A DNA stretch of 64,000 bases from an uncultured Bacteroidales bacterium (GTDB lineage: Bacteria; Bacteroidota; Bacteroidia; Bacteroidales; VadinHA17), in assembly GCA_963732435.1 (NCBI GenBank), contig CAVSZL010000008.1:34546-98545 (forward strand), read 5' to 3'. Of the stretch, positions 639 to 16,646 are shown piece after piece; position 1 is the stretch's first letter; every line of letters begins with the position of its first letter. A program made the position numbers and the translations under genes. Under the pieces are notes generated by a model. That model was not told the DNA's origin, made no database searches, and was given only the letters and a program-made list of their open reading frames with translations.

Positions 639-1724
<1,086 letters not shown>

Positions 1725-1738
1725 TTTATTGTTATTGA

Positions 1739-3715
<1,977 letters not shown>

Positions 3716-3758
3716 TTTAGCAAAGTGGAGAATAATAATTTTTTACAGAAGCAATCTT

Positions 3759-5321
3759 ATGAAAAAGATAACTATTTTACTTACATTGGTTGTGATGTTT
3801 TCGTTCATAACTGGAATCGCCCAGCAATCTTCTCCTGTACGAGTTGAGAGCGGATTGTTACAGGGAACTTCCGAAAACGGGCTGATGGTCTACAAAGGCA
3901 TCCCTTTTGCGGCTCCTCCAGTTGGTGATCTCCGATGGCGCGCACCTCAGCCACCATCTGATTGGGAGGGTATAAAGCAAGTCACAAAGTTTGCTCCCGG
4001 ACCCATACAGGGAGGAAATCCTCCCTCAGGAAAGAGCGAAGACTGCCTGTACCTGAATATCTGGACACCCGCAAAATCTGCAAATGACCTTATACCTGTG
4101 CTGGTCTGGATCTATGGTGGAGGATTCGGTGCAGGATCAACATCAGAGCGGAATTACAACGGGGAAAATCTGGCCAGAAAGGGAGTGGTCCTCGTCAGTA
4201 TTGCCTATCGTGTCGGTCAAATTGGTTTTTTGGCTCACCCTGAGTTGAGCAAAGAGAGTCCGAATAATGTTTCAGGAAATTACGGCCTTCTGGATATGAT
4301 TGCAGGTCTCCAATGGGTGCAGAAAAATATAACAGCATTTGGTGGCGACCCGAAAAAAGTGACCATTTTCGGTGAATCTGCAGGGGGAATAGCAGTCAGC
4401 ATGTTGTGTGCATCTCCACTTGCCAAAGGATTATTCCATGGCGCGATTTCACAAAGCGGGGGTTCATTCGGACCTCCCCGCCCTACCACCTTTCCGGGCG
4501 AGAATTTGAAAATACTTGCCAATGCTGAGAGTTCTGGTCAGGCGTATGTAAAAAACGCAGGGGTTTCATCCATTGCTGAACTCAGGAAGATCGGTCCTGA
4601 CAAACTACCTGCAGGCAGAGGACTTGGGATGTCATGGCCGATCATCGATGGGTGGGTAATTCCAGACGATCAGTACAAACTCTACGAAACGGGACGGTTC
4701 AATGACACACCGATTCTTGTTGGTTATAATTCAGATGAAGGTGCCAGTTTCTCACCACCAGGAACACCGGAGGCATATATTGCCAGTGTCAAAACGCGCT
4801 ACGGACCCTTTGCGGAGAGTCTCCTTAAGGCCTATCCTGCCGGTTCAGGGATTGTTCCCAAGACCGCCCGTGATCTGGCCCGCGATGCAGCGTTTGGCTG
4901 GCATACATGGATATGGGCACGGCTTCAGTCGAAGATAGGAAAATCTAATGCTTACTACTATTATTTTGATCAGCACCCTGACTATCCGGAGGATTCACCT
5001 AAAGCCGGATATGGTTCTCCTCACGGTCAGGATGTGGCCTATGTATTTCAGCATCTCAACGCAACAGATCCACTAACTACTAAAACTGACCTGGAAATCT
5101 CTGAAGCCATGGCCATCTACTGGACGAACTTCGCCAAATATGGCGATCCCAATGGGAAAGGGGTTCCGGTGTGGCCAGCCTTCAGCGATGCCAGCCCTGT
5201 GGTAATGCACTTTAACCAGAAACCACATACAGGACCGGTCCCAAGCGCTGAATCACTTAGGAGTCTTGATGCCTATTTTGCATGGCGACGAACACCTGAA
5301 GGAGAGGCATGGGCGAAATAA
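3759..5321 (+). CDS. Carboxylesterase type B (para-nitrobenzyl esterase-like)
   Basis: The internal Met at 3759 gives signal peptide MKKITILLTLVVMFSFITGIAQQ. The longer track ORF from 3639 overlaps the upstream gene. Type-B motifs seen: EDCLYLNIWTP, WIYGGGF and nucleophile FGESAGG. Sampled lines of this gene are visibly more GC-rich than sampled lines of the neighbouring esterase genes. Confidence 0.9.
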   Translation: MKKITILLTLVVMFSFITGIAQQSSPVRVESGLLQGTSENGLMVYKGIPFAAPPVGDLRWRAPQPPSDWEGIKQVTKFAPGPIQGGNPPSGKSEDCLYLNIWTPAKSANDLIPVLVWIYGGGFGAGSTSERNYNGENLARKGVVLVSIAYRVGQIGFLAHPELSKESPNNVSGNYGLLDMIAGLQWVQKNITAFGGDPKKVTIFGESAGGIAVSMLCASPLAKGLFHGAISQSGGSFGPPRPTTFPGENLKILANAESSGQAYVKNAGVSSIAELRKIGPDKLPAGRGLGMSWPIIDGWVIPDDQYKLYETGRFNDTPILVGYNSDEGASFSPPGTPEAYIASVKTRYGPFAESLLKAYPAGSGIVPKTARDLARDAAFGWHTWIWARLQSKIGKSNAYYYYFDQHPDYPEDSPKAGYGSPHGQDVAYVFQHLNATDPLTTKTDLEISEAMAIYWTNFAKYGDPNGKGVPVWPAFSDASPVVMHFNQKPHTGPVPSAESLRSLDAYFAWRRTPEGEAWAK

Positions 5322-5401
5322 TACAACTGCACGCAAATAGCTTACAAGGTGAATAACCTTAAATTATTTCGCACCTGACTATTTAAATTACAATTAGATG
5401 A

Positions 5402-6616
<1,215 letters not shown>

Positions 6617-6687
6617 CTATTATTATGAGTATCGGGAATCAATGATATGAATATATTGATTTTCAAGCTATTTTAGAACCTTTATGC

Positions 6688-9075
6688 ATGAGAAAATATG
6701 TTTATATATCAGGTGTAATCGCGTGCTTTTTGATTTTCTGTGAAGTAGGTGCTCAGAATGTACTCTATCCCAATGAATTCCCATTAGGGGATGTAACATT
6801 GCTTGACGGACAATTTAAACATGCCCGCGACCTGAATATTCAAACTTTGTTAAAATACGATGTAGACCGTCTGCTCGCTCCATTCAGGAAAGAAGCCGGA
6901 TTACCTGAAAAAGCGAAATTATTTCCTAATTGGGAGGGTCTGGATGGTCATATTGGCGGTCATTATCTATCAGCATTAGCTATGAACTATGCTGCCACAG
7001 GAAATGCTGAATGCAAAAAACGTATGGATTACATGATTGCCGGGCTAAAAGCCTGCCAGGATGCAAATGGTATAAACAATCCTGACTGGGGTAAAGGATA
7101 CCTCGGAGGTGTCCCCAATAGCAAAAATATCTGGAGCTCTTTGCAGAAAGGTGATTTTAAAGCGTACAGGGCTGCATGGGTGCCATGGTATAATGTGCAT
7201 AAGATGTATGCCGGATTGAGGGATGCATGGGCATATACAGGTAATGAAGATGCTAAAGTCATATTCCTGAAATTCTGCGACTGGGGAATTGATATCACCT
7301 CTGCCCTGTCTGACACACAGATGCAATCGATGCTTGATATGGAACATGGCGGGATGAATGAAATCTTCGCAGATGCATTTAAGATCACAGGAAATGAGAA
7401 ATATCTTAATGCAGCAAAACGGTTTTCTCACAGAATGCTTCTGGATGCAATGTCCTCACATACTGATAATCTGGATAATATACATGCAAATACTCAGGTT
7501 CCGAAAGCAGTCGGTTTTCAGCGGATAGCTGACTTTACCAGCGATAAGATGTTTGATGAGGCAGGAAGCTTTTTCTGGGAAACTGTAACCGGAACCCGGT
7601 CTCTGGCTTTTGGTGGTAACAGCAGGAGAGAATATTTTCCGGCTTTAGCTTCATACATTGATTTTGTAACTGAAGTAGAAGGCCCGGAATCGTGCAATTC
7701 ATATAACATGCTGAGGTTAACTGAGCATCTCTTCAGGGCCAGACCATTGGCAAAATATGCCGATTACTACGAAAAAACACTATATAACCACATCTTGTCG
7801 ACCCAGCATCCGGAACATGGCGGCTATGTTTACTTCACTCCTGCACGTCCGCGACATTACAGGGTTTATTCAGCACCTAATGAGGGGATGTGGTGTTGCG
7901 TAGGAAGCGGTATGGAAAATCACGGAAAATACAATCAGTTTATCTATACTCACCATCAGGATTCGCTATTTCTGAACCTTTTTATTCCTTCAGAACTGAA
8001 CTGGAAGGAAAAAGGTATAAAAATCAGACAATCAACCACTTTCCCCGATGAAGAACAGACCAGACTGACAATTATAGAAGGCTCATCCGGATTTAAACTA
8101 ATGGTACGTTATCCATCATGGGTCAACCGGGGAGCTCTTGAAATCACAATCAATGGTAAAGCTATTTCGATTGAATCGCAACCCTCATCATATATAGCTA
8201 TCGACCGACAATGGAAAAAAGGTGATGTTGTGCTCATTAAACTTCCTATGCATAATTCAATCGTAAAGCTGCCAAACGTACCAGAGTACATTGCTTTCAT
8301 GCATGGTCCGATATTACTCGGTGCAAAAACAGGCACCGAAGATTTGAAAGGACTGGTAGCAGATGACAGCCGATGGGGACACATAGCTCATGGCGAAAAA
8401 CTCCCCGTTGCGAAAGCGCCGATCCTGATTGATGATAACATAACAGGGATACCCGGTAAATTATTAGCGGTAAAAGATAAACAAATGACATTTACCGCTC
8501 CGGGGTTAAAAGTGATTAATGGTTCAGACATCGAGTTGGAGCCGTTTTACAGGATCCACGACTCAAGATACATGATGTATTGGATGGCCTTGTCAAATGA
8601 TGAGTATAGTTCTTACATCGACTCTGTTGCATTAGTTGATAAGATGAAACTGGAGCTTCAGAAACGTACCATAGATTTTGTTGCGCCGGGTGAACAGCAA
8701 CCCGAAGCTGATCATAAAATGCAAAACTCAAATTCAAATACCGGCACCCTTAACGATGAATTCTGGCGCGATGCCCGCGATGGAGGGAATTTCAGCTACC
8801 TCTTGAAAACAAATTCCGAAACCAGTCTCTCACTTATCTTACGATTTTGGGGTATGGAACGCAGAGCCAGAAAGTTTGATATATATATCGACAACGATAA
8901 ATTAATTTCCGAGAATAATTCAGGCAGGCTTGATAAGAACATGTTTATTGATGTTGAATATTCCATCCCGGATTCATTGATCATAGGCAAAAACCAGGTC
9001 AGGGTAATAATCCAGTCTGTTCCGGGATCATCAACAAGCCAGGTTTTTTATGTCCGCTTAGCCAGGAAAAAATAG
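6688..9075 (+). CDS. GH127-family (DUF1680) beta-L-arabinofuranosidase-like glycoside hydrolase
   Basis: 795 aa with a signal peptide. Motifs GPESCNSYNM and EGMWCCVGSGMENHGKY match the Cys/Zn centre known for GH127 HypBA1. A C-terminal beta-sandwich extension follows. Confidence 0.8.
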   Translation: MRKYVYISGVIACFLIFCEVGAQNVLYPNEFPLGDVTLLDGQFKHARDLNIQTLLKYDVDRLLAPFRKEAGLPEKAKLFPNWEGLDGHIGGHYLSALAMNYAATGNAECKKRMDYMIAGLKACQDANGINNPDWGKGYLGGVPNSKNIWSSLQKGDFKAYRAAWVPWYNVHKMYAGLRDAWAYTGNEDAKVIFLKFCDWGIDITSALSDTQMQSMLDMEHGGMNEIFADAFKITGNEKYLNAAKRFSHRMLLDAMSSHTDNLDNIHANTQVPKAVGFQRIADFTSDKMFDEAGSFFWETVTGTRSLAFGGNSRREYFPALASYIDFVTEVEGPESCNSYNMLRLTEHLFRARPLAKYADYYEKTLYNHILSTQHPEHGGYVYFTPARPRHYRVYSAPNEGMWCCVGSGMENHGKYNQFIYTHHQDSLFLNLFIPSELNWKEKGIKIRQSTTFPDEEQTRLTIIEGSSGFKLMVRYPSWVNRGALEITINGKAISIESQPSSYIAIDRQWKKGDVVLIKLPMHNSIVKLPNVPEYIAFMHGPILLGAKTGTEDLKGLVADDSRWGHIAHGEKLPVAKAPILIDDNITGIPGKLLAVKDKQMTFTAPGLKVINGSDIELEPFYRIHDSRYMMYWMALSNDEYSSYIDSVALVDKMKLELQKRTIDFVAPGEQQPEADHKMQNSNSNTGTLNDEFWRDARDGGNFSYLLKTNSETSLSLILRFWGMERRARKFDIYIDNDKLISENNSGRLDKNMFIDVEYSIPDSLIIGKNQVRVIIQSVPGSSTSQVFYVRLARKK

Positions 9076-9142
9076 TATCATATAATATTAATTGTTGACA
9101 AAAGAGATACTTTATAAAATAACAGAATAAAGAAATTTAAAA

Positions 9143-12100
9143 ATGATAAAGAAAAGTCGTTTTAATGGCATTCATATGTTGACGCTCATACCACCCACCA
9201 TTATGATGCTTATATCACTTTCAGGGTTTGCACAGAAAGCTTATCTATCCGGACAGGAATGTCCGTGCGACATCTATGCCGCCGCAGGCAATCCATGTGT
9301 TGCTGCCCATAGCAGTACGCGTGCCCTGTACGCATCATATAAGGGAGCTCTGTACCAGGTTATGCGTCAGTCCGACGGTAAGACCCTCGACATAGGTACA
9401 GTCAGACCTACCGGGGAAGATCCGGGCGGATATGCCGACGCAGCAGCTCAGGATGCATTCTGCTCAGGAACCTTATGCTGGATAACCACTATATACGACC
9501 AGTCAGGAAAAGGTAATCACCTAGTTCAGGCGCCTCCGGGAACTTTCAAGGGACCGGCTAAAGGTGGATTTAATACTTTACCAATTGCGGATATGGCACC
9601 AGTTACAATCATGGGACATAAGGTTTACGGCGTCTATATCATGCCAGGCATGGGCTTGAGAAACAACAATGCAACCGGGCTTGCTATCAATGATGAACCA
9701 GAGGGTATTTACATGGTCTGTGACGGTAAGCACTTTGACAGTGGATGTTGCTTCAATTACGGCAACACTTCGACTAACAGCCGTGCTGTGGGCAGAGGAA
9801 CAATGGAAACAGTCTACTTTGGTACTTCAACTGCCTGGGGTAGAGGCAACGGCACAGGCCCATGGATAATGTCCGACATGGAGGCCGGACTTTTTTCCGG
9901 TTATAACGCTAAACAGAACTTAGCGAATCCCACTATCGATTCTTGGAACTTTGTCACAGGAGTAGTAAACGGCGGCGATGGAAACAAATGGCAGATAAGA
10001 GGCGGAGATGCTCAAAACGGAAATCTTTCAACTTTCTATAACGGCATCAGGCCTCATTCCCCTGACAATAATTTTTATTACCCTATGCACAGGAAAGGAG
10101 CCGTACAAATGGGCAATGGAGGGGACAATGGCAACGGGTCTGCCGGTACATTTTATGAAGGGGTAATGACCGGAGGATATCCATCCGATGCTACCACTGA
10201 TGCTGTGCAGACTAACATTGTTGCAGCCAGATATGATATTCAACGTCTTGATCTTTCACGTATTGCCTCTTTTTATCCGGGATCTGAACAATCGGTTACT
10301 GCAACATTCACTAACATAACCGAAGCTCCTGTTACAGGTGTCAAAATATCCATCTCCGTCCCAAAGGGATGGAAATCAACTGTTGCTGATTCTAAAGAAT
10401 CTGTAAAGATTTTCCGTGACCCGGTTGCCCCTGGAGAAAGTGTAACTGCTTCTTTTGCCGTTACATCACCCGCCATAACCGGCACGTTTTTCCTTAATGG
10501 AAAAGCCGAATGGAAGTACCAGGCTTCCGGCCTGATAGATTCCGAGACAACCTCGAAGAGAGTGAGAAATGTATATCCGGTAAAGATCAACGAAGTTCGA
10601 TTCGAAATCAGCGGAAGCCCGACAAATCAGTTTATTGAACTTTATAATTCAGGCAGTAGTGAGACTGATCTCTCCGGCTGGACCCTGATCAGCGCTCAAA
10701 GTATGTGGGCTCCTGTAAAGTTAGGGAAGATCACCGCCGGGACGAAACTCGCTGCTCAGGGCTTTTTCCTGCTTGGCCTCTCACCTTCAGGTTTGGCTGC
10801 CCCCGCAAACCGTGGCGAAAACATCATCAACGTTCGAAGTACCACCGGGTTTGAGGCTGGCCACCAGATAGACATTGAGGGTGAGATACGTACGATCGCA
10901 AGCGTCGGAACAGCGGCCACACCTATCACCACAATATTTGTTCCTGTTTCCACAGGGCCCTGGATTATAATCCCTGCCGGCTCTACCAACCTGCCCGTCA
11001 CGATTGCAACCGGTTTTGAGGTTGGGCAGAAGATCGGTATCGATTTAGGTGGCAACTACGAGGTAGCAACGGTCACAGTAGTCGGTAAGGGTGCAACACA
11101 AACCATCCTGTCTCAGGCAGCGAATACCGGTGATACAATAATTAAAGTTGCGGCATGTGCCAATATAACTAATGGTGACATACTGACATTAAATACCGGC
11201 TCACGTAAGGAACTCGTCAGGGTTAAACGGATTCTAAATGTTGTTACGGCTCCATCATTGCGGCCAGAACAACCAGGATACAGCACCTCCTCTCCGGGTG
11301 ATGTGGTCTTGACTGCACCGCTCAAATCTGACCATATGTTGAATGTAGATGTATCTTCTCCGGGCACAGGAATCAGTTTCTTTCCGGCTACAAGGTTTGT
11401 ACACAAGAGCGGCGACGCTGTACAGGCACTCGGTAGCGGTATCACACTAAAAAATGCGTTGGAAATGAATCACGAAGTCGGAGCAGCAGTATTAAATCCG
11501 ATGGTCACATCAATGGGTTATCAGGGGGCAGTAACACCAAATCAATGGTATGGAGCACCTATATCAACCTCTGCCGGATCGGTCACACTCCTGGATGCAA
11601 GTGGTGAAGTGGTAGTAGATGCAATCGTCTACGGATCACAACAGAGCAACTCAAGCGCCAATGGTATCATCACCACCCCCGAGATCTCTATTCTTGAGGG
11701 AAATCAGAGCCAGGGTGGGTGTATTGTAATAGCACCAGGTACTACTTCGGGTTCCGGGCCTTTCGCCACGTTCGCAAGCAAAACTAACAAAAGCGCTGGT
11801 CGATTCCCTGATGGAACTGATACTGACAGTAACTGCAACGATTTCTTCTTTCAGGGCACAACCATACTTACTTTTCCGGCCCCGGCAGGTACAAACAATA
11901 TTAAAGTTACAGGTATCGCAGACTTCAGCATCGGTCAAAAGGTTATCATTGGTTCAGGGGAAGATAGCGAGACAAGAGTTGTATCAAATATCGGTACTCC
12001 TGGAGGTACTACTCTCGGTTCTGCAACAAGTCCTGGAACCAAAGTTTTTGCAGTTGCAAGTTCGGAAGGGTTTAGCACTGGTCAGACCATCACAGTTGAC

Positions 12101-12361
12101 GAAGGGAAAAACACCGAAACAGCTATTATCTCATCTGTCACTGTCGCCCGTCGACGATTTGGAGCCAGTACGGTAAACACCCCTATGGATTCTATTGCCG
12201 TCTCAACACCTCTTACTATAGCGCATACACCTGGCATTCAGGTGTCTGGAAGCGGTATTACGTTCACCTCTCCATTAGAAAGGGCTCATGACAAAGGGAC
12301 ACAGGTAGCAAGTAACATTCCAACTCCCGGCAGGCCAAATCTATATGTCATAAAACCATAG
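9143..12361 (+). CDS. GH54 alpha-L-arabinofuranosidase catalytic domain fused to NEW3-like, lamin-tail (LTD) and repeat modules
   Basis: Residues about 39-365 align by eye with fungal AbfB: CPCDIYAAAGNPCVAAHSSTRALY, adjacent-Cys CCFNYGN, TMETVYFG, GNGGDNGNGSAGTFYEGVMTGGYPSD, NIVAARY. These are followed by VKINEVRF...FIELYNSG...LSGWTL (LTD). Confidence 0.85.
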   Translation: MIKKSRFNGIHMLTLIPPTIMMLISLSGFAQKAYLSGQECPCDIYAAAGNPCVAAHSSTRALYASYKGALYQVMRQSDGKTLDIGTVRPTGEDPGGYADAAAQDAFCSGTLCWITTIYDQSGKGNHLVQAPPGTFKGPAKGGFNTLPIADMAPVTIMGHKVYGVYIMPGMGLRNNNATGLAINDEPEGIYMVCDGKHFDSGCCFNYGNTSTNSRAVGRGTMETVYFGTSTAWGRGNGTGPWIMSDMEAGLFSGYNAKQNLANPTIDSWNFVTGVVNGGDGNKWQIRGGDAQNGNLSTFYNGIRPHSPDNNFYYPMHRKGAVQMGNGGDNGNGSAGTFYEGVMTGGYPSDATTDAVQTNIVAARYDIQRLDLSRIASFYPGSEQSVTATFTNITEAPVTGVKISISVPKGWKSTVADSKESVKIFRDPVAPGESVTASFAVTSPAITGTFFLNGKAEWKYQASGLIDSETTSKRVRNVYPVKINEVRFEISGSPTNQFIELYNSGSSETDLSGWTLISAQSMWAPVKLGKITAGTKLAAQGFFLLGLSPSGLAAPANRGENIINVRSTTGFEAGHQIDIEGEIRTIASVGTAATPITTIFVPVSTGPWIIIPAGSTNLPVTIATGFEVGQKIGIDLGGNYEVATVTVVGKGATQTILSQAANTGDTIIKVAACANITNGDILTLNTGSRKELVRVKRILNVVTAPSLRPEQPGYSTSSPGDVVLTAPLKSDHMLNVDVSSPGTGISFFPATRFVHKSGDAVQALGSGITLKNALEMNHEVGAAVLNPMVTSMGYQGAVTPNQWYGAPISTSAGSVTLLDASGEVVVDAIVYGSQQSNSSANGIITTPEISILEGNQSQGGCIVIAPGTTSGSGPFATFASKTNKSAGRFPDGTDTDSNCNDFFFQGTTILTFPAPAGTNNIKVTGIADFSIGQKVIIGSGEDSETRVVSNIGTPGGTTLGSATSPGTKVFAVASSEGFSTGQTITVDEGKNTETAIISSVTVARRRFGASTVNTPMDSIAVSTPLTIAHTPGIQVSGSGITFTSPLERAHDKGTQVASNIPTPGRPNLYVIKP
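10814..12142 (+). repeat. Five protein-level copies of a module of about 35 aa (x-I-x-V...GF-x-x-GQ-x-I-x-I...G...E...I-x-S-V) inside the GH54 protein
   Basis: Copies at aa 558-590, 613-649, 661-697, 915-951 and 963-1000. Examples: TTGFEAGHQIDIEGEIRTIASVG, ATGFEVGQKIGIDLGGNYEVATVTVVG, ADFSIGQKVIIGSGEDSETRVVSNIG, EGFSTGQTITVDEGKNTETAIISSV. Confidence 0.6.
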
Positions 12362-12648
12362 TAATAAACTTTTGTAAAATGGAAAATTTAATATGTTTTG
12401 GTAAGATTGTCCCTTATTTGGTAGCTTTGGGTAATGCAAACTCTGCTATGATATGATTTAAAATAACCCGAAGATTGGTCATGTACGAGGGGAAGAATCT
12501 CATAAGACAATTAATGCATGAATGATTTGACCCGGGGCATACAATCGAAGGTGAGATGAGAGAAAAAGAGCTAAGAATGAATTAACATTAAATATTAATA
12601 TTCAGATTTAAAAATAATTAGTTAATCCAAATTTAAAAATTAGGAATT

Positions 12649-14244
12649 ATGAGAAGAAAAGTAAAACTATACAAGGTGGTTATTATTATCTTTTTCTTCC
12701 TCTTCAGTTTGGTTTCTGTTTCAGGACAAAATGCCCGGATCAAATTCGATACTGATCGTATAAAAGGAGAGGTTGATAAAAACCTGTATGGGAATTTTGT
12801 TGAGCATCTGGGCAGATGCGTATATGGTGGAATTTATGAACCCGGTTCAAAGTTGTCAGATCCTGATGGGTTCCGGAAAGATGTACTGGAAGCTGTTAAA
12901 GGATTGAATGTTTCACTGATCCGGTATCCCGGAGGTAATTTTGTATCTAACTATCACTGGCTTGATGGAGTGGGTCCAAAAAATGAAAGAGTTCCAAGAA
13001 TGGAACTTGCCTGGGCAAGACTTGAAACCAACGAATTTGGAACTAATGAATTTGTTAAATATTGCAGGGCAGCAGGAAGCGAACCGTATCTTTCGGTCAA
13101 TATGGGAACCGGCACCATTGAAGAGGCACAAAGATGGGTTGAATACTGTAATGTGAAGGAAGGGCCTTATTATGCAGAGCTCAGGAGGAAACACGGCTTC
13201 CCGGAGCCTTATAATGTAAAATTCTGGAGTCTTGGAAACGAAATGGACGGCGAATGGCAGATGGGACATCTAAATGCCGAAGATTACAATAAAAAAGCCA
13301 TGGAGGCTGCCAAGCTGATGAGACTGACATCTCCTGATATAAAACTGGTTGCAGCAGGATCATCAAATTACAGACCTCACGCCGACCCTGATTATTGGAA
13401 CAGGTCTGTAATAACTCACCTTAAAGACGTTGTTGATTATATTGCTCTTCATATGTATGTCGGGAATCCTGACAATAACTATTATAATTTCCTTTCAACT
13501 CCACTTGTTATGGAAGAGAGAACCCGTATCGTAAGAGGAATGATTGATGAGGCAATGCAAAAAGCCGACAGGGGAACCAGACCACCCATGTATATTGCCT
13601 GGGACGAGTATAATGTTTGGTATAGGGCACGAACAGATGAAACGATGAAGGGAACAAGAGCTCTGGAGGAAAAATACAATCTTGAGGATGCGCTGGTAAT
13701 CGGTGGCTTTCTAAATGTATTTATAAGAAATGCAGACATTGTTAAAATGGCCAATATGGCTCAACTTGTAAATGTCATCGCTCCGGTTTTCGCAGAAGAA
13801 AAGGGGATTTTCAGGCAGACAATATATTTCCCGTTGGAACTATTTGCTAAGAATATGAAGGGAAAATCACTTGATCTTTTTGTTGATTGTCCGACATATA
13901 ACACCGATGAATTTTACATAGGCCTTGGTGAGGCTACAACAAAACAGACGAATGTACCTTACCTCGATGTATCTGCCACATATAATAATGGAGAGGTTGT
14001 AATATGCGTTATCAACAGACATAAGGACAATCCTATTAAGACCGATATTATCAGCCAGTCAGGTGAGTTTATTGATGTTCTTAAGGTATCTGAGATCAAC
14101 GCACCAGATATCAAGGCAACAAATGATTTTGGTATCGAAAATGTCAGGACTGTTTCCAAGCCCGACCTGAAACCAAATGGAAATATAGTTACTTATGCGT
14201 TTCCTGCCCATTCTTTAACCTTGATCCGGGGAAAACTAAAATGA
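12649..14244 (+). CDS. GH51 alpha-L-arabinofuranosidase
   Basis: Signal peptide present. Motifs: LYGNFVEHLGRCVYGGIY, IRYPGGNFVSNYHW, and WSLGNEMDGEWQ (GNE acid/base motif). Typical length of 531 aa. Confidence 0.9.
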   Translation: MRRKVKLYKVVIIIFFFLFSLVSVSGQNARIKFDTDRIKGEVDKNLYGNFVEHLGRCVYGGIYEPGSKLSDPDGFRKDVLEAVKGLNVSLIRYPGGNFVSNYHWLDGVGPKNERVPRMELAWARLETNEFGTNEFVKYCRAAGSEPYLSVNMGTGTIEEAQRWVEYCNVKEGPYYAELRRKHGFPEPYNVKFWSLGNEMDGEWQMGHLNAEDYNKKAMEAAKLMRLTSPDIKLVAAGSSNYRPHADPDYWNRSVITHLKDVVDYIALHMYVGNPDNNYYNFLSTPLVMEERTRIVRGMIDEAMQKADRGTRPPMYIAWDEYNVWYRARTDETMKGTRALEEKYNLEDALVIGGFLNVFIRNADIVKMANMAQLVNVIAPVFAEEKGIFRQTIYFPLELFAKNMKGKSLDLFVDCPTYNTDEFYIGLGEATTKQTNVPYLDVSATYNNGEVVICVINRHKDNPIKTDIISQSGEFIDVLKVSEINAPDIKATNDFGIENVRTVSKPDLKPNGNIVTYAFPAHSLTLIRGKLK

Positions 14245-16646
14245 AAAAAAATACAACCTCCATTAATATCGTATTCATTGTGTTAATGACAATTATAGTC
14301 ACACACACATCCTGTACGAAAAACCAGACTGAATCTAAAGAAATGGTCCTGTGGTATAATAAACCTGCAGATAAAGTATGGCTGGACGGATTATTCATTG
14401 GGAATGGCTACATGGGTGCCAATGTATTCGGGAGAGTGCAGAACGAGAGAATAGCTCTGAATGAGTCTACTTTCTGGTCAGGCAAGCCTCATGATTATAA
14501 CGATCCTGATGCCGGCAAGTATTTCGGGCAAATTAAAGATCTTGTATTTGCTGAAAAATTCAAGGAAGCTGAAAAGCTGGCAGATGAACATTTTTATGGA
14601 ATACCGGCTGCACAGCAGGCATATGCGCCTGTTGGAGACCTTCTCCTGGACTTTAAAGTTACAGGTGATTCCATAAAAGATTATTACCGCGAGCTGGATA
14701 TGGAAACCGGAATTGTCAGAGTCAGCTATACCGATGGTGATGTAAAGATGACACGTGAAGTATTCATGTCTTATCCCGACCATGTTATGGTCATGAAAGT
14801 GTCGGCAAATAAACCCGGAAAGGTATCTGTAGAAGCTAAGTTAAAAAGTCCTTTTAAAGAAGAAATAATAGCAAAAGATGGCAAACTGATCCTGAACGGG
14901 ATGTGGAGATATCTTCCCGAAAAAGACAGCTGGCTCATTGCCAGGGTTGAAGGAACAGGAATGAGATTCCAGACTGCCATTACCGCTATTCCTGAAAAAG
15001 GCACCCTTAAAGCAACCGATTCAAGTCTTGTTGTTTCTGATGCCAATTCTGTTACATTTTTACTCACATCCGCAACAAGTTTTTTAACTTATAAAGATAT
15101 AAGCGGAGATCCTGCAACTGCCTGTGAAAAAATTCTGACTGCAACTAATGGTAAAGACTTTAATACACTTAAAAATACTCATTTAAGTGATTTCAGTAAT
15201 CTTATGAGCAGAGTGCATCTTAAAATTGGCGACCCTTTAAAGAATCAAAAACCAACTGATGAAAGAGTTGCTGATCTTAAGAAAGGCCTCAAAGACCCGG
15301 ACCTGCTATCTAAAATATTTCAGTTTGGCCGTTATATTCTGGTTTCAAGCAGCAGAACAGGAAGTGAACCTGCTAATTTACAGGCAAGATGGAACCAGGA
15401 TCTGCTGCCCAACTGGGGAAGTAAATATACCATCAATATCAATACAGAAATGAATTACTGGCCAGCCGAAGTAACAAACCTGTCGGAGACACACACACCA
15501 TTATTTCACATGATAAAGGATCTGGCCGAAAACGGTTCTAACACAGCAAAAATTTATTACAGCGCCGGTGGCTGGGTGGCTCATCATAATACTGATCTGT
15601 GGAGGGGTACAGCTCCTGTTGATGCAGCACGCTATGGAATGTGGCCGGTTGGAGGCGTATGGCTTTGTCAGCATATCTGGGAACATTACCTTTTTACAGG
15701 AGATGCGGACTTTCTCAGAGAATATTATCCGGTAATGAAAGGGGCTGCCCAGTTCCTGATGGACATTATGGTAATACATCCCAAATATAACTACCTGGTG
15801 ATTCCATTCTCAATGTCACCTGAACAGGGCTTTTTTGTCAGAGAGGGTGCAGAAGAGACCTTCCTGGCGCCGACAACAACAATGAATATTGGAATGGTCA
15901 AAGATCTTTTTCCTCATTGTATTGAGGCTGCTAAAATCCTTAATGTTGATCAGGATTTCAGTGCAAAACTCGCAGATGCACTCGAAAAAATACCACCATA
16001 CATGATCGGTAAGGATGGTTTACTTCAGGTTTGGATAGAGGATTGGATAAGGGGCAATGAAGGACATAATATGTCTGCTAACTTCGGTTTCTTTCCGGGC
16101 AATTCCATAACGTTGAGGGGAAATCCGGAAATTGCTGCGGCAATTCAAAAATGGCTTGAGCCACGTCGGTCAAGATTAAGCTGGACAAGCGCATGGGATA
16201 TCTGTGATTGGGCAAGACTTGAAAATGGGGTAAGGGCAGATACGGCAATTAACCAGTTTTTCAGGGTTACACCAATGAGAAGTGGCGAAGGAGGTAATCA
16301 GATGCCAAGGCAGGTATTGGTAATAACCTTCATAATCCCAGCAGCAACCAGTCGGATGCCAATTTCGGATTTACTGCAGGAGTTGCCGAGTGTCTGCTTG
16401 CAGAGTCACGCAGGAGAAATCTCATTACTGCCGGCATTACCCCCCAGCTGGGATAAAGGTATCGTAACAGGATTAAGAGCCAGAGGTGGATTTGAAGTAA
16501 ATATGAGTTGGGAAAATGGACTCCTTAAAACGTGTGAAATAAAATCAATTCTGGGAAATCCTTGCATTGTGGGATATGGTGAGAAGACCAAAAGTTATGA
16601 TATCCCGGCAGGAACATCAATAAATATTACCGCAGAACTATTATAA
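14241..16646 (+). CDS. GH95 alpha-L-fucosidase/alpha-L-galactosidase family protein; continuous ORF with an internal out-of-frame segment (see findings)
   Basis: Lipoprotein-type signal (..THTSC). GH95 N-terminal motif WYNKPADKVW...GNGYMGANVFG...ESTFWSG and C-terminal LQSHAGEISLLPALPPSW...GLRARGGFEV. The start overlaps the GH51 stop (ATGA at 14241-14244). Confidence 0.8.
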   Translation: MKKNTTSINIVFIVLMTIIVTHTSCTKNQTESKEMVLWYNKPADKVWLDGLFIGNGYMGANVFGRVQNERIALNESTFWSGKPHDYNDPDAGKYFGQIKDLVFAEKFKEAEKLADEHFYGIPAAQQAYAPVGDLLLDFKVTGDSIKDYYRELDMETGIVRVSYTDGDVKMTREVFMSYPDHVMVMKVSANKPGKVSVEAKLKSPFKEEIIAKDGKLILNGMWRYLPEKDSWLIARVEGTGMRFQTAITAIPEKGTLKATDSSLVVSDANSVTFLLTSATSFLTYKDISGDPATACEKILTATNGKDFNTLKNTHLSDFSNLMSRVHLKIGDPLKNQKPTDERVADLKKGLKDPDLLSKIFQFGRYILVSSSRTGSEPANLQARWNQDLLPNWGSKYTININTEMNYWPAEVTNLSETHTPLFHMIKDLAENGSNTAKIYYSAGGWVAHHNTDLWRGTAPVDAARYGMWPVGGVWLCQHIWEHYLFTGDADFLREYYPVMKGAAQFLMDIMVIHPKYNYLVIPFSMSPEQGFFVREGAEETFLAPTTTMNIGMVKDLFPHCIEAAKILNVDQDFSAKLADALEKIPPYMIGKDGLLQVWIEDWIRGNEGHNMSANFGFFPGNSITLRGNPEIAAAIQKWLEPRRSRLSWTSAWDICDWARLENGVRADTAINQFFRVTPMRSGEGGNQMPRQVLVITFIIPAATSRMPISDLLQELPSVCLQSHAGEISLLPALPPSWDKGIVTGLRARGGFEVNMSWENGLLKTCEIKSILGNPCIVGYGEKTKSYDIPAGTSINITAELL

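Follow-up and report, generated by a model that had tools for sequence, protein, structure and literature searches.

How a domain of a secreted enzyme can hold some 255 residues of repeats in one of its loops, and what kind of domain these repeats form, are the questions raised by a gene of an uncultured Bacteroidales bacterium (VadinHA17). The gene lies in a 64,000-nucleotide stretch of contig CAVSZL010000008.1 (GenBank assembly GCA_963732435.1, positions 34,546 to 98,545 of the forward strand), hereafter the window, in which positions are counted from the first letter. According to the list of open reading frames, it spans 9143..12361 on the + strand, as do all features described below, and it encodes a secreted glycoside hydrolase family 54 (GH54) alpha-L-arabinofuranosidase-like protein of 1072 amino acids (aa). 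An earlier note on this DNA had described here a lamin-tail domain (LTD) split, and followed, by five copies of an uncharacterised module, and its frame and numbering, with nucleotide 10577 falling on aa 479, are right. The best explanation of the whole, which we regard as probable, is that two kinds of repeated element, termed R and p, are the two parts of small barrel units that are nested in one another, as R1[R2[R3-p1]p2]p3 in the LTD loop and as R4[R5-p4]p5 behind the LTD, making up a rigid appendage.

The LTD is indeed divided at the level of sequence profiles. The native Pfam match (PF00932, gathering score 34.3 bits) covers aa 479-547 only (10577..10783), scoring 37.2 bits over profile positions 7-70 of 109. 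In silico excision of aa 549-802, which leaves a chimera of aa 470-548 and aa 803-905, extends the match to positions 7-108 and raises it to 43.3 bits; therefore the LTD is split by about 255 aa (roughly aa 549-802) between profile positions 70 and 71. The usual LTD of bacterial secreted enzymes has a short link at this place, whereas the one described here, bona fide by profile, carries a three-unit insert. Within the C-terminal part that the chimera delineates (aa 803-905, 11549..11857), profile positions 71-108 map to about aa 803-831, followed by a long loop and then by an RFPDGxDTDxNCxDF strand. One could also read these data as showing no split domain, with the N-terminal LTD-like piece being a degenerate fragment and aa 803-905 an unrelated segment, congruent with the zero Pfam matches of aa 795-910 scanned alone and with the AlphaFold2 (AF2) confidence below 50 at aa 832-882. 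The gain in alignment length and score upon joining the pieces however speaks against such a view. Moreover, a truncated LTD followed by three R and three p elements (RRRppp) recurs in other proteins, for example P0133 (profile positions 7-73), and the complete RRRppp-RRpp layout is kept in 109 of the 120 top homologs listed, across at least four phyla. We thus consider this explanation highly improbable. The full-length AF2 model has predicted strands on both sides of the insert (aa 480-546 and 800-830; predicted local distance difference test, pLDDT, 64-86 as means of 10-residue blocks), and the two LTD parts may reassemble in three dimensions to a single Ig-like beta-sandwich. The long conserved loop of the C-terminal part (aa 832-884, 11636-11794; YGSQQSNSSANG..SPEIA.LEG.Q.QGGCIV) has a pLDDT below 50 and includes a near-invariant Cys860, and Cys898 is located just downstream, outside the loop.

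The residues that interrupt and follow the LTD are composed of R, a unit of about 45 aa with the consensus TL-a-a-A-x-a-G-d-T-n-I-k-V-x-S-x-x-G-F-x-x-G-(Q/D)-x-I-x-I-D-x-G-a-n-x-E-T-x-x-I-x-x-V-G-T, and p, an element of about 22 aa with the consensus GSGITLxAPLxxAHxxGAxV (the PLxxAHxxGxxV element). Each is present in five copies, in the order LTD-N / RRRppp / LTD-C / RRpp. The five GF-x-x-GQ-x-I-x-I...E...I-x-S-V cores already recognised in the earlier note, three in the insert and two after the LTD, were recovered when a family alignment of 81 full-length homologs (A1) was compared with itself by hhalign: aa 611-806 align with aa 914-1072 at E=5e-24, the best value, and smaller sub-blocks at E=1e-13, 1e-8 and 3e-6, as expected for real repeats. 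Plain blastp of aa 471-1072 against itself yielded zero off-diagonal matches, making profile self-comparison necessary. A hidden Markov model (HMM) of the unit, built from unrelated proteins alone, detects every copy as well, with per-domain E values of 5e-13 to 3e-10 for the R-containing segments. This unit HMM, constructed from single Rp units of proteins with alternating R and p, finds the repeat in no place of the whole window besides the GH54 frame. In contrast, the picture of a simple tandem of 35-aa repeats with a p tail on each copy has to be replaced. The unit is longer, and the p elements stand grouped, three after R3 and two after R5, with the middle element of the first group, GTGISFFPATRFVHKSGDAVQA, having been overlooked; the actual order is R^n p^n.

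In the insert, R1 (aa 551-592, 10793..10918; hhalign self-comparison, unit HMM 1-52, 29.2 bits) would form the N-half of the outermost unit and R2 (aa 606-650, 10958..11092; unit HMM positions 7-47, conservation) that of the middle one. The innermost unit is contiguous (aa 655-740, 11105..11362), being matched in one stretch by unit HMM positions 1-68, and consists of R3 (aa 655-699), a variable tip loop (aa 700-720) and p1 (aa 721-740). It is followed by p2 (aa 741-762, 11363..11428; p search 25.2 bits, unit HMM 47-69), the presumed C-half of the middle unit, and by p3 (aa 764-786, 11432..11500; p search, unit HMM 47-69), that of the outermost. The C-terminal block is arranged alike, with R4 (aa 908-951, 11864..11995; hhalign, unit HMM 3-47, 35.6 bits) and p5 (aa 1036-1057, 12248..12313; p search 31.5 bits, unit HMM 47-69) as putative halves of the outer unit, surrounding a contiguous inner unit (aa 957-1036, 12011..12250; unit HMM 3-69) of R5 (aa 957-1001), a variable tip loop (aa 1002-1015) and p4 (aa 1016-1036). 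The protein ends with a tail that has the motif P-x-x-PN-(L/Q)-Y (aa 1058-1072, 12314..12358; hhalign alignment, family consensus). A similar tail is shared by both blocks, with the consensus PAPNQWFGGP after p3 (aa 787-802, 11501-11548) and PGAPNQY after p5, which suggests that the two blocks may have arisen by duplication of an entire 'block plus tail' module. The linker between R1 and R2, PITTIFVPVSTGPW (aa 593-605, 10919-10957), shows a conservation of 0.80 and a predicted strand; since the unit HMM carries R1 into it (positions 47-52), it may be a vestigial p-like strand.

Judged from sequence, R and p are the N- and C-terminal parts of one domain of about 70 aa, and the copies in R^n p^n are read most simply as one such domain inserted inside the next. 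Many proteins alternate RpRpRp..., providing 60 contiguous single Rp units, mostly of 57-75 aa, and R^n p^n blocks are found elsewhere as RRpp (n=24), RRRppp (n=10) and RRRRpppp (n=4), which count among the most frequent forms, with larger arrays of up to 7 R and 6 p. We then treated R as an opening and p as a closing bracket in 110 mixed blocks, and compared the result with shuffled strings. Closings never exceed openings in 96 of the 110 blocks (shuffle mean 41.6, maximum 58), and R and p are exactly balanced in 53 (shuffle mean 17.4, maximum 28). A common break point accompanies this grammar: the unit HMM breaks at position 47 (VGTaG^GTGITL) for R2, R4, p2, p3 and p5, with R1 overrunning to 52, and spans the inner units R3..p1 and R5..p4 whole. 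Excision variants exist in nature, as in the homologs P0055 and P0086, where the whole of R5..p4 is absent and R4 is joined directly to p5, turning the C-terminal block into one contiguous unit with the junction '...ESADIAGG/ITLVSPLTLPHEAG...' ('IAGG/ITL', the slash marking the joint). Conservation is likewise paired: in the 81-sequence alignment the top-residue frequency is 0.86 for R2 with 0.88 for p2, 0.73 for R1 with 0.72 for p3, and 0.70 for R3 with 0.74 for p1, compared to 0.85 for the catalytic domain. The two tip loops are the least conserved segments (0.33-0.37) and have low pLDDT in an otherwise confident model, aa 700-720 being at 0.33 with a pLDDT below 50.

To account for this arrangement we propose that R, with four predicted strands and a short 3-10 turn, and p, with two strands, would together form one six-stranded barrel-like domain of ~70 residues, a type to which the 'rider' insertion domain of phage tailspike depolymerases and the P22 coat I-domain belong as well. 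Domains of this type have their two ends near each other and can hence sit in a loop of a host domain; in the Rp unit, the loop between the fourth and fifth strands (unit-profile position 47) would in turn accept insertions, bringing the copies to sit inside one another. Three units would then occupy the LTD loop and two would be placed after the LTD. The chain would lead outward along the successive R halves, return along the p halves and end where it began, which would permit the two LTD parts to reassemble. Such an out-and-back path would also explain how the 255-aa array fits in the LTD loop, and likewise in other hosts.

Structure prediction is congruent with a domain of this type. The AF2 model of aa 905-1072 is all-beta (pLDDT 90, predicted template modelling score 0.77), and DSSP assigns four strands and a 3-residue helix (the 3-10 turn) to R and two strands to p. 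One unit is thereby predicted to hold the six strands and short helix that characterize the rider, and the second rider trait, insertion in a host-domain loop, is found for LTD, GH2, GH27 and GH20. Foldseek searches of the PDB with this model returned weak matches (best E=8e-4, TMq 0.35-0.41), headed by the tailspike depolymerases 7VUL, 7W1C/7W1D, 6E0V, 4Y9V and 9K4A and the tail tube of phage Mystique (9N71). Among these, 7W1C is described as carrying an insertion domain (PMC8822698), and 7VUL, 6E0V, 4Y9V and 9K4A possibly carry one too. Matches in BFVD were to phage tail and tailspike proteins, over 81-99 columns with a root-mean-square deviation of 2.6-3.1 Å and 13-20% identity, a size that would fit one contiguous unit. 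Foldseek with the full-length model was uninformative for the repeats, as GH54 and generic immunoglobulin (Ig)-like matches dominate.

The same PDB list raises the question of whether R and p could instead be rungs of one continuous beta-solenoid, a beta-helix-like rod in which R contributes two rungs and p one of ~22 aa. The element lengths, being multiples of about 22 aa, hint at such a rod, right-handed beta-helix tailspikes are at the top of the list, and there is a weak sequence match (E about 1) to a motif of a beta-helical ice-binding protein (FQVGDDVTVGKGAHFE). Nevertheless, K1 lyase, at least, among those tailspikes has a six-stranded barrel insertion, and the sub-threshold Pfam matches are to the Rider model rather than to Beta_helix, for which Pfam has no match in the insert or the C-terminal block. 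A solenoid moreover leaves unexplained the equal numbers of R and p and their bracket-like grammar, the clean loss of R5..p4, and the return of the chain to its start within a TIM barrel or LTD loop, and the fourth strand of each R, 8-9 residues long, is atypical for rungs. We hence deem a solenoid unlikely and retain the nested barrel units.

The rider has been described as two three-stranded sheets and a short helix, inserted in a turn of the beta-helix and resembling the I-domain of P22; its reported roles are trimer stabilisation and contact with the polysaccharide, its loops reaching capsule oligosaccharide (PMC8822698). The substrate groove of LKA1 gp49 is made deeper by an equivalent insertion, likewise a six-stranded barrel (PMC5701251), and the I-domains of P22 and CUS-3 are six-stranded barrels (PMC11243222). 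Like the predicted Rp unit, the phage rider has about 70-90 aa and is all-beta, with six strands and a short helical turn, and both are insertions in a host-domain loop of a polysaccharide-degrading enzyme. The motifs run colinear, (P/T)LAAxAAAGxxxIxV...GD/GQ-x-I-x-I...strand...GG-x-x-I-x-L...H...V, with the rider sequence PLAADAAAGSKVITV...VKGTYLYL...VKISQIRKV...SGGVTSIRLDKALH...AEV following the Rp consensus. The similarity is however below family thresholds, and the rider has a longer middle loop and occurs as a single copy in a beta-helix, whereas Rp units belong to bacterial glycosidases, with up to 6-10 per protein, apparently inside one another. The P22 and CUS-3 coat I-domain is set apart by its description as a larger domain (about 120 aa) with a long D-loop in a capsid protein, and was not among the listed Foldseek matches.

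Turning to profiles, K1 lyase scores 129 bits with K1-lyase_Rider (PF24149, gathering score 27 bits), the model covering aa 141-230. An hhalign comparison of the unit profile with the single K1 lyase sequence was not significant. With a four-sequence rider profile (K1 lyase plus three diverged phage homologs), hhalign gave a pairwise E of 2.3e-4 over 30 columns and a colinear global alignment; a word-indexed search with the rider domain gave zero homologs. The best PDB sequence match of the R profile is again the Mystique tail tube 9N71 (E=0.0017, 27 aa); the paper on Mystique reports that the tail tube has an external domain but gives no fold for it. The rider link thus consists of sequence and fold signals that are weak, all below threshold, but convergent. 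We conclude that the module works like, and is probably remotely homologous to, the rider/I-domain insertion type, although we refrain from assigning it to PF24149.

Several observations weigh against this account as a whole. Exact balance is lacking in about half of the blocks, mostly because p is missing, which may stem from weak detection of the 22-aa p and fragmentary metagenomic proteins, or from R arrays standing without p. In the hhalign self-alignment p1 stands opposite p4 and p3 opposite p5, p2 being left out, which is not as expected had the block simply gained an outer layer; the p3-p5 pairing is driven by the common tail. Chimera scoring of R-p partners was partly discriminating only and failed to single out p2 as the partner of R2, with R2+p3 scoring above R2+p2. 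Also, the physical nesting and the barrel fold of each unit are inferred. PF24149 has no match in the insert or the C-terminal block, even at E<=10, and reaches 16-17 bits (E 0.006-0.013, compared to the cut-off of 27) in the relatives P0133 and P0250. Lastly, the generic units are rich in Ala, Gly and Thr with few aromatics, unlike typical carbohydrate-binding modules (CBMs), a composition that looks structural rather than lectin-like.

The statement that the module bears no recognised name holds: it has no above-threshold match in Pfam, NCBIfam, PHROGs or PDB sequences. Pfam detects zero families in the insert and only two chance-level matches (E 0.08-0.12) in the C-terminal block. Known CBM or Ig-like families have no match in Pfam, NCBIfam or PHROGs at aa 548-803 and aa 905-1072, and the region does not resolve into two independent complete domains. 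PDB sequence searches with the 603-aa region, the R profile and the Rp unit profile gave nothing significant. Kinship with FliN/SpoA (PF01052) was considered and rejected, as the similarity is a local hairpin-motif match only. It concerns a 27-residue 'G-x-x-I-x-V...L-x-x-GD-x-I-x-LD' stretch in some relatives, equivalent to profile positions 13-39, of which zero pass alone; the window protein has no such match, and no FliN-type structures are among the Foldseek matches. In P0121, P0166, P0127 and P0063, the Pfam and TIGRFAM models of FliN/SpoA match the GD/GQ hairpin of R locally, over 27 aa, with whole-protein scores of up to 28.7 bits, hence automated annotation may mislabel some glycosidases as FliN-like.

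As to the distribution, the earlier note had asked for the repeat in other proteins. It is indeed found there, and it is not peculiar to this enzyme. The C-terminal 603 aa have more than 1154 relatives at 90% clustering, the listed top 120 being 54-67% identical, and the genomes with the family include Bacteroidota (closest Rikenellaceae, 62-63%), Planctomycetota, Acidobacteriota and Verrucomicrobiota. Among 1.84 billion representatives of 50% identity clusters, an R profile made from the five repeats of the window protein detected 775 proteins with E<=1e-3, of which 261 have E<=1e-10; the copy number is 2-10 per protein. Pfam scans of 45 long matches place the repeat on glycosidases of families GH2, GH3, GH20, GH27, GH53, GH54 and GH78 and also on non-glycosidase families such as PepX_C and Sde0182, and in the scanned relatives no Pfam or NCBIfam model covers it. 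Excising the array in silico extends the GH2 TIM-barrel match from profile positions 5-79 to 5-159, and that of GH27 from 232-283 to 212-283. In a GH20 protein an RRRRpppp array separates profile positions 1-300 of the catalytic domain from positions 308-347. With GH2, GH20, GH27 and LTD all interrupted, the arrays are therefore habitual insertions in host domains. A paper listing domains of bacterial GH54 proteins gives ArabFuran-catal, RICIN, LTD, NPCBM_assoc and RPT1 (PMC8155123); RPT1 in this list indicates that internal repeats were thus flagged automatically, not analysed. Many stand-alone proteins of about 50-132 aa (P0271-P0359) have one or two Rp units, are unannotated and in some cases come from long contigs; they may be true small proteins, fragments or wrongly called frames. 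When the Rp profile was used in a word-indexed search, all the proteins returned were unnamed, had <=132 aa and lacked Pfam annotation.

What do the arrays do? The earlier proposal of a binding or surface-anchoring scaffold is a conjecture drawn from sequence. For cell anchoring, we found no lipoprotein cysteine by eye and no Por/type IX secretion tail in Pfam. Given that the arrays go with secreted glycosidases, that this GH54 lineage lacks CBM42, and the roles reported for the phage domains, the likeliest role would be that of a rigid non-catalytic appendage, stabilising the enzyme and extending its substrate-facing surface where fungal GH54 enzymes have their CBM42. In at least four phyla, conservation of the R2+p2 unit with its flanks equals that of the catalytic domain, with invariant or near-invariant aromatics at W607, F625, Y639, F746, F752, Y793 and W802. 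This makes the unit the best candidate for a specific contact, with a glycan or another domain; the putative partner would be either plant polysaccharide decorated with arabinose or some other region of the enzyme. The earlier observation was hence largely correct and non-trivial, and its interpretation partly so, lacking the grammar, the wide distribution and the nearest relative.

A stronger emphasis on binding would make the units a new CBM family that targets the enzyme to plant polysaccharide and replaces CBM42 functionally. The presence on many glycoside hydrolase families, the lack of the CBM42/AbfB of fungal GH54, the contacts of phage rider loops with capsule oligosaccharide, and the conservation of R2+p2 with its seven aromatics are all in agreement with this notion. 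On the other hand, a conserved surface pattern of aromatic or polar residues is nearly absent from the generic units, the documented role in phage proteins is mainly structural, and the conserved aromatics could just as well lie in the core or at an interface. We regard a new CBM family as possible yet doubtful; it fits everything, is compatible with the nested appendage, and differs from it in emphasis only. Similarly tentative is an extended version of the nested appendage itself, namely a large 'professional insertion' beta-barrel family of ~70 aa whose loop between the fourth and fifth strands would take up further copies recursively, down to perhaps six or seven levels, growing rigid protrusions from loops of catalytic TIM barrels and Ig-like domains, with R2+p2 replacing CBM42 as a new polysaccharide-binding site.

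These data provide a name, boundaries and a grammar for a domain that is now blank in the annotation of hundreds of glycosidase families. As Rp arrays interrupt host domains, domain callers report the latter as truncated or in 'two stretches', annotations that an Rp profile would correct. A link also emerges between bacterial carbohydrate-active enzymes and an insertion domain whose descriptions have so far been confined to phage tailspikes and capsids, and R2+p2 is marked as a target for binding studies within the GH54 family. Recursive nesting, if true, would be an unusually clean natural case of repeated domain-in-domain insertion, a rare self-similar ('matryoshka') architecture that bears on the tolerance of proteins to insertions and on the design of insertable scaffolds, and a ready-made scaffold for protein engineering.

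The host enzyme itself starts with a signal-peptide-like segment (aa 1-31), apparently cleavable as read by eye. It is followed by the GH54 catalytic domain (aa 41-364, 9263..10234), which matches the full profile of Pfam PF09206 (ArabFuran-catal) at E=2.7e-131 and, in Foldseek with the full-length model, the GH54 structures 6SXS and 1WD3 at E about 1e-19. Next is a NEW3/NPCBM-associated Ig-like domain (aa 379-447, 10277..10483; PF10633, E=2.1e-10), overlapped by a sub-threshold Alpha_adaptinC2 match (aa 382-439; 20.4 bits, cut-off 27.6). Fungal GH54 AbfB, for instance 1WD3, has a homologous catalytic domain (46-48% identity in the Foldseek alignment) together with CBM42, whereas the window protein instead has NEW3, LTD and the Rp arrays; PF05270 (CBM42/AbfB) has no match in its 1072 aa. 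An exact-sequence look-up of the protein returned no record. Much of aa 181-344 in the catalytic domain has a pLDDT below 50 in the full-length AF2 model, although solved homologs are 46-48% identical; we attribute this to the prediction set-up, as probably a limit of the shallow 81-sequence alignment and 3 recycles and not a property of the protein.

The gene is part of a co-directional run (645-16646) with four esterases, three of the CE1-like 'Esterase' type (one with CBM48) and a carboxylesterase, as well as a GH127 beta-L-arabinofuranosidase, a GH51-like arabinofuranosidase and a GH95 member. With such neighbours the cluster looks dedicated to an arabinose-decorated plant polysaccharide, resembling one for degradation of arabinan/arabinoxylan side chains. 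Further along, the G+C content falls from about 0.40-0.48 over 1-28 kb to about 0.30-0.38 over window positions ~28000-64000, and in two intervals, 50-52 kb and 56-64 kb, GC skew becomes strongly positive (0.25-0.31); the compositional shift from ~28 kb could reflect gene orientation, a different genomic region or replication-related skew.

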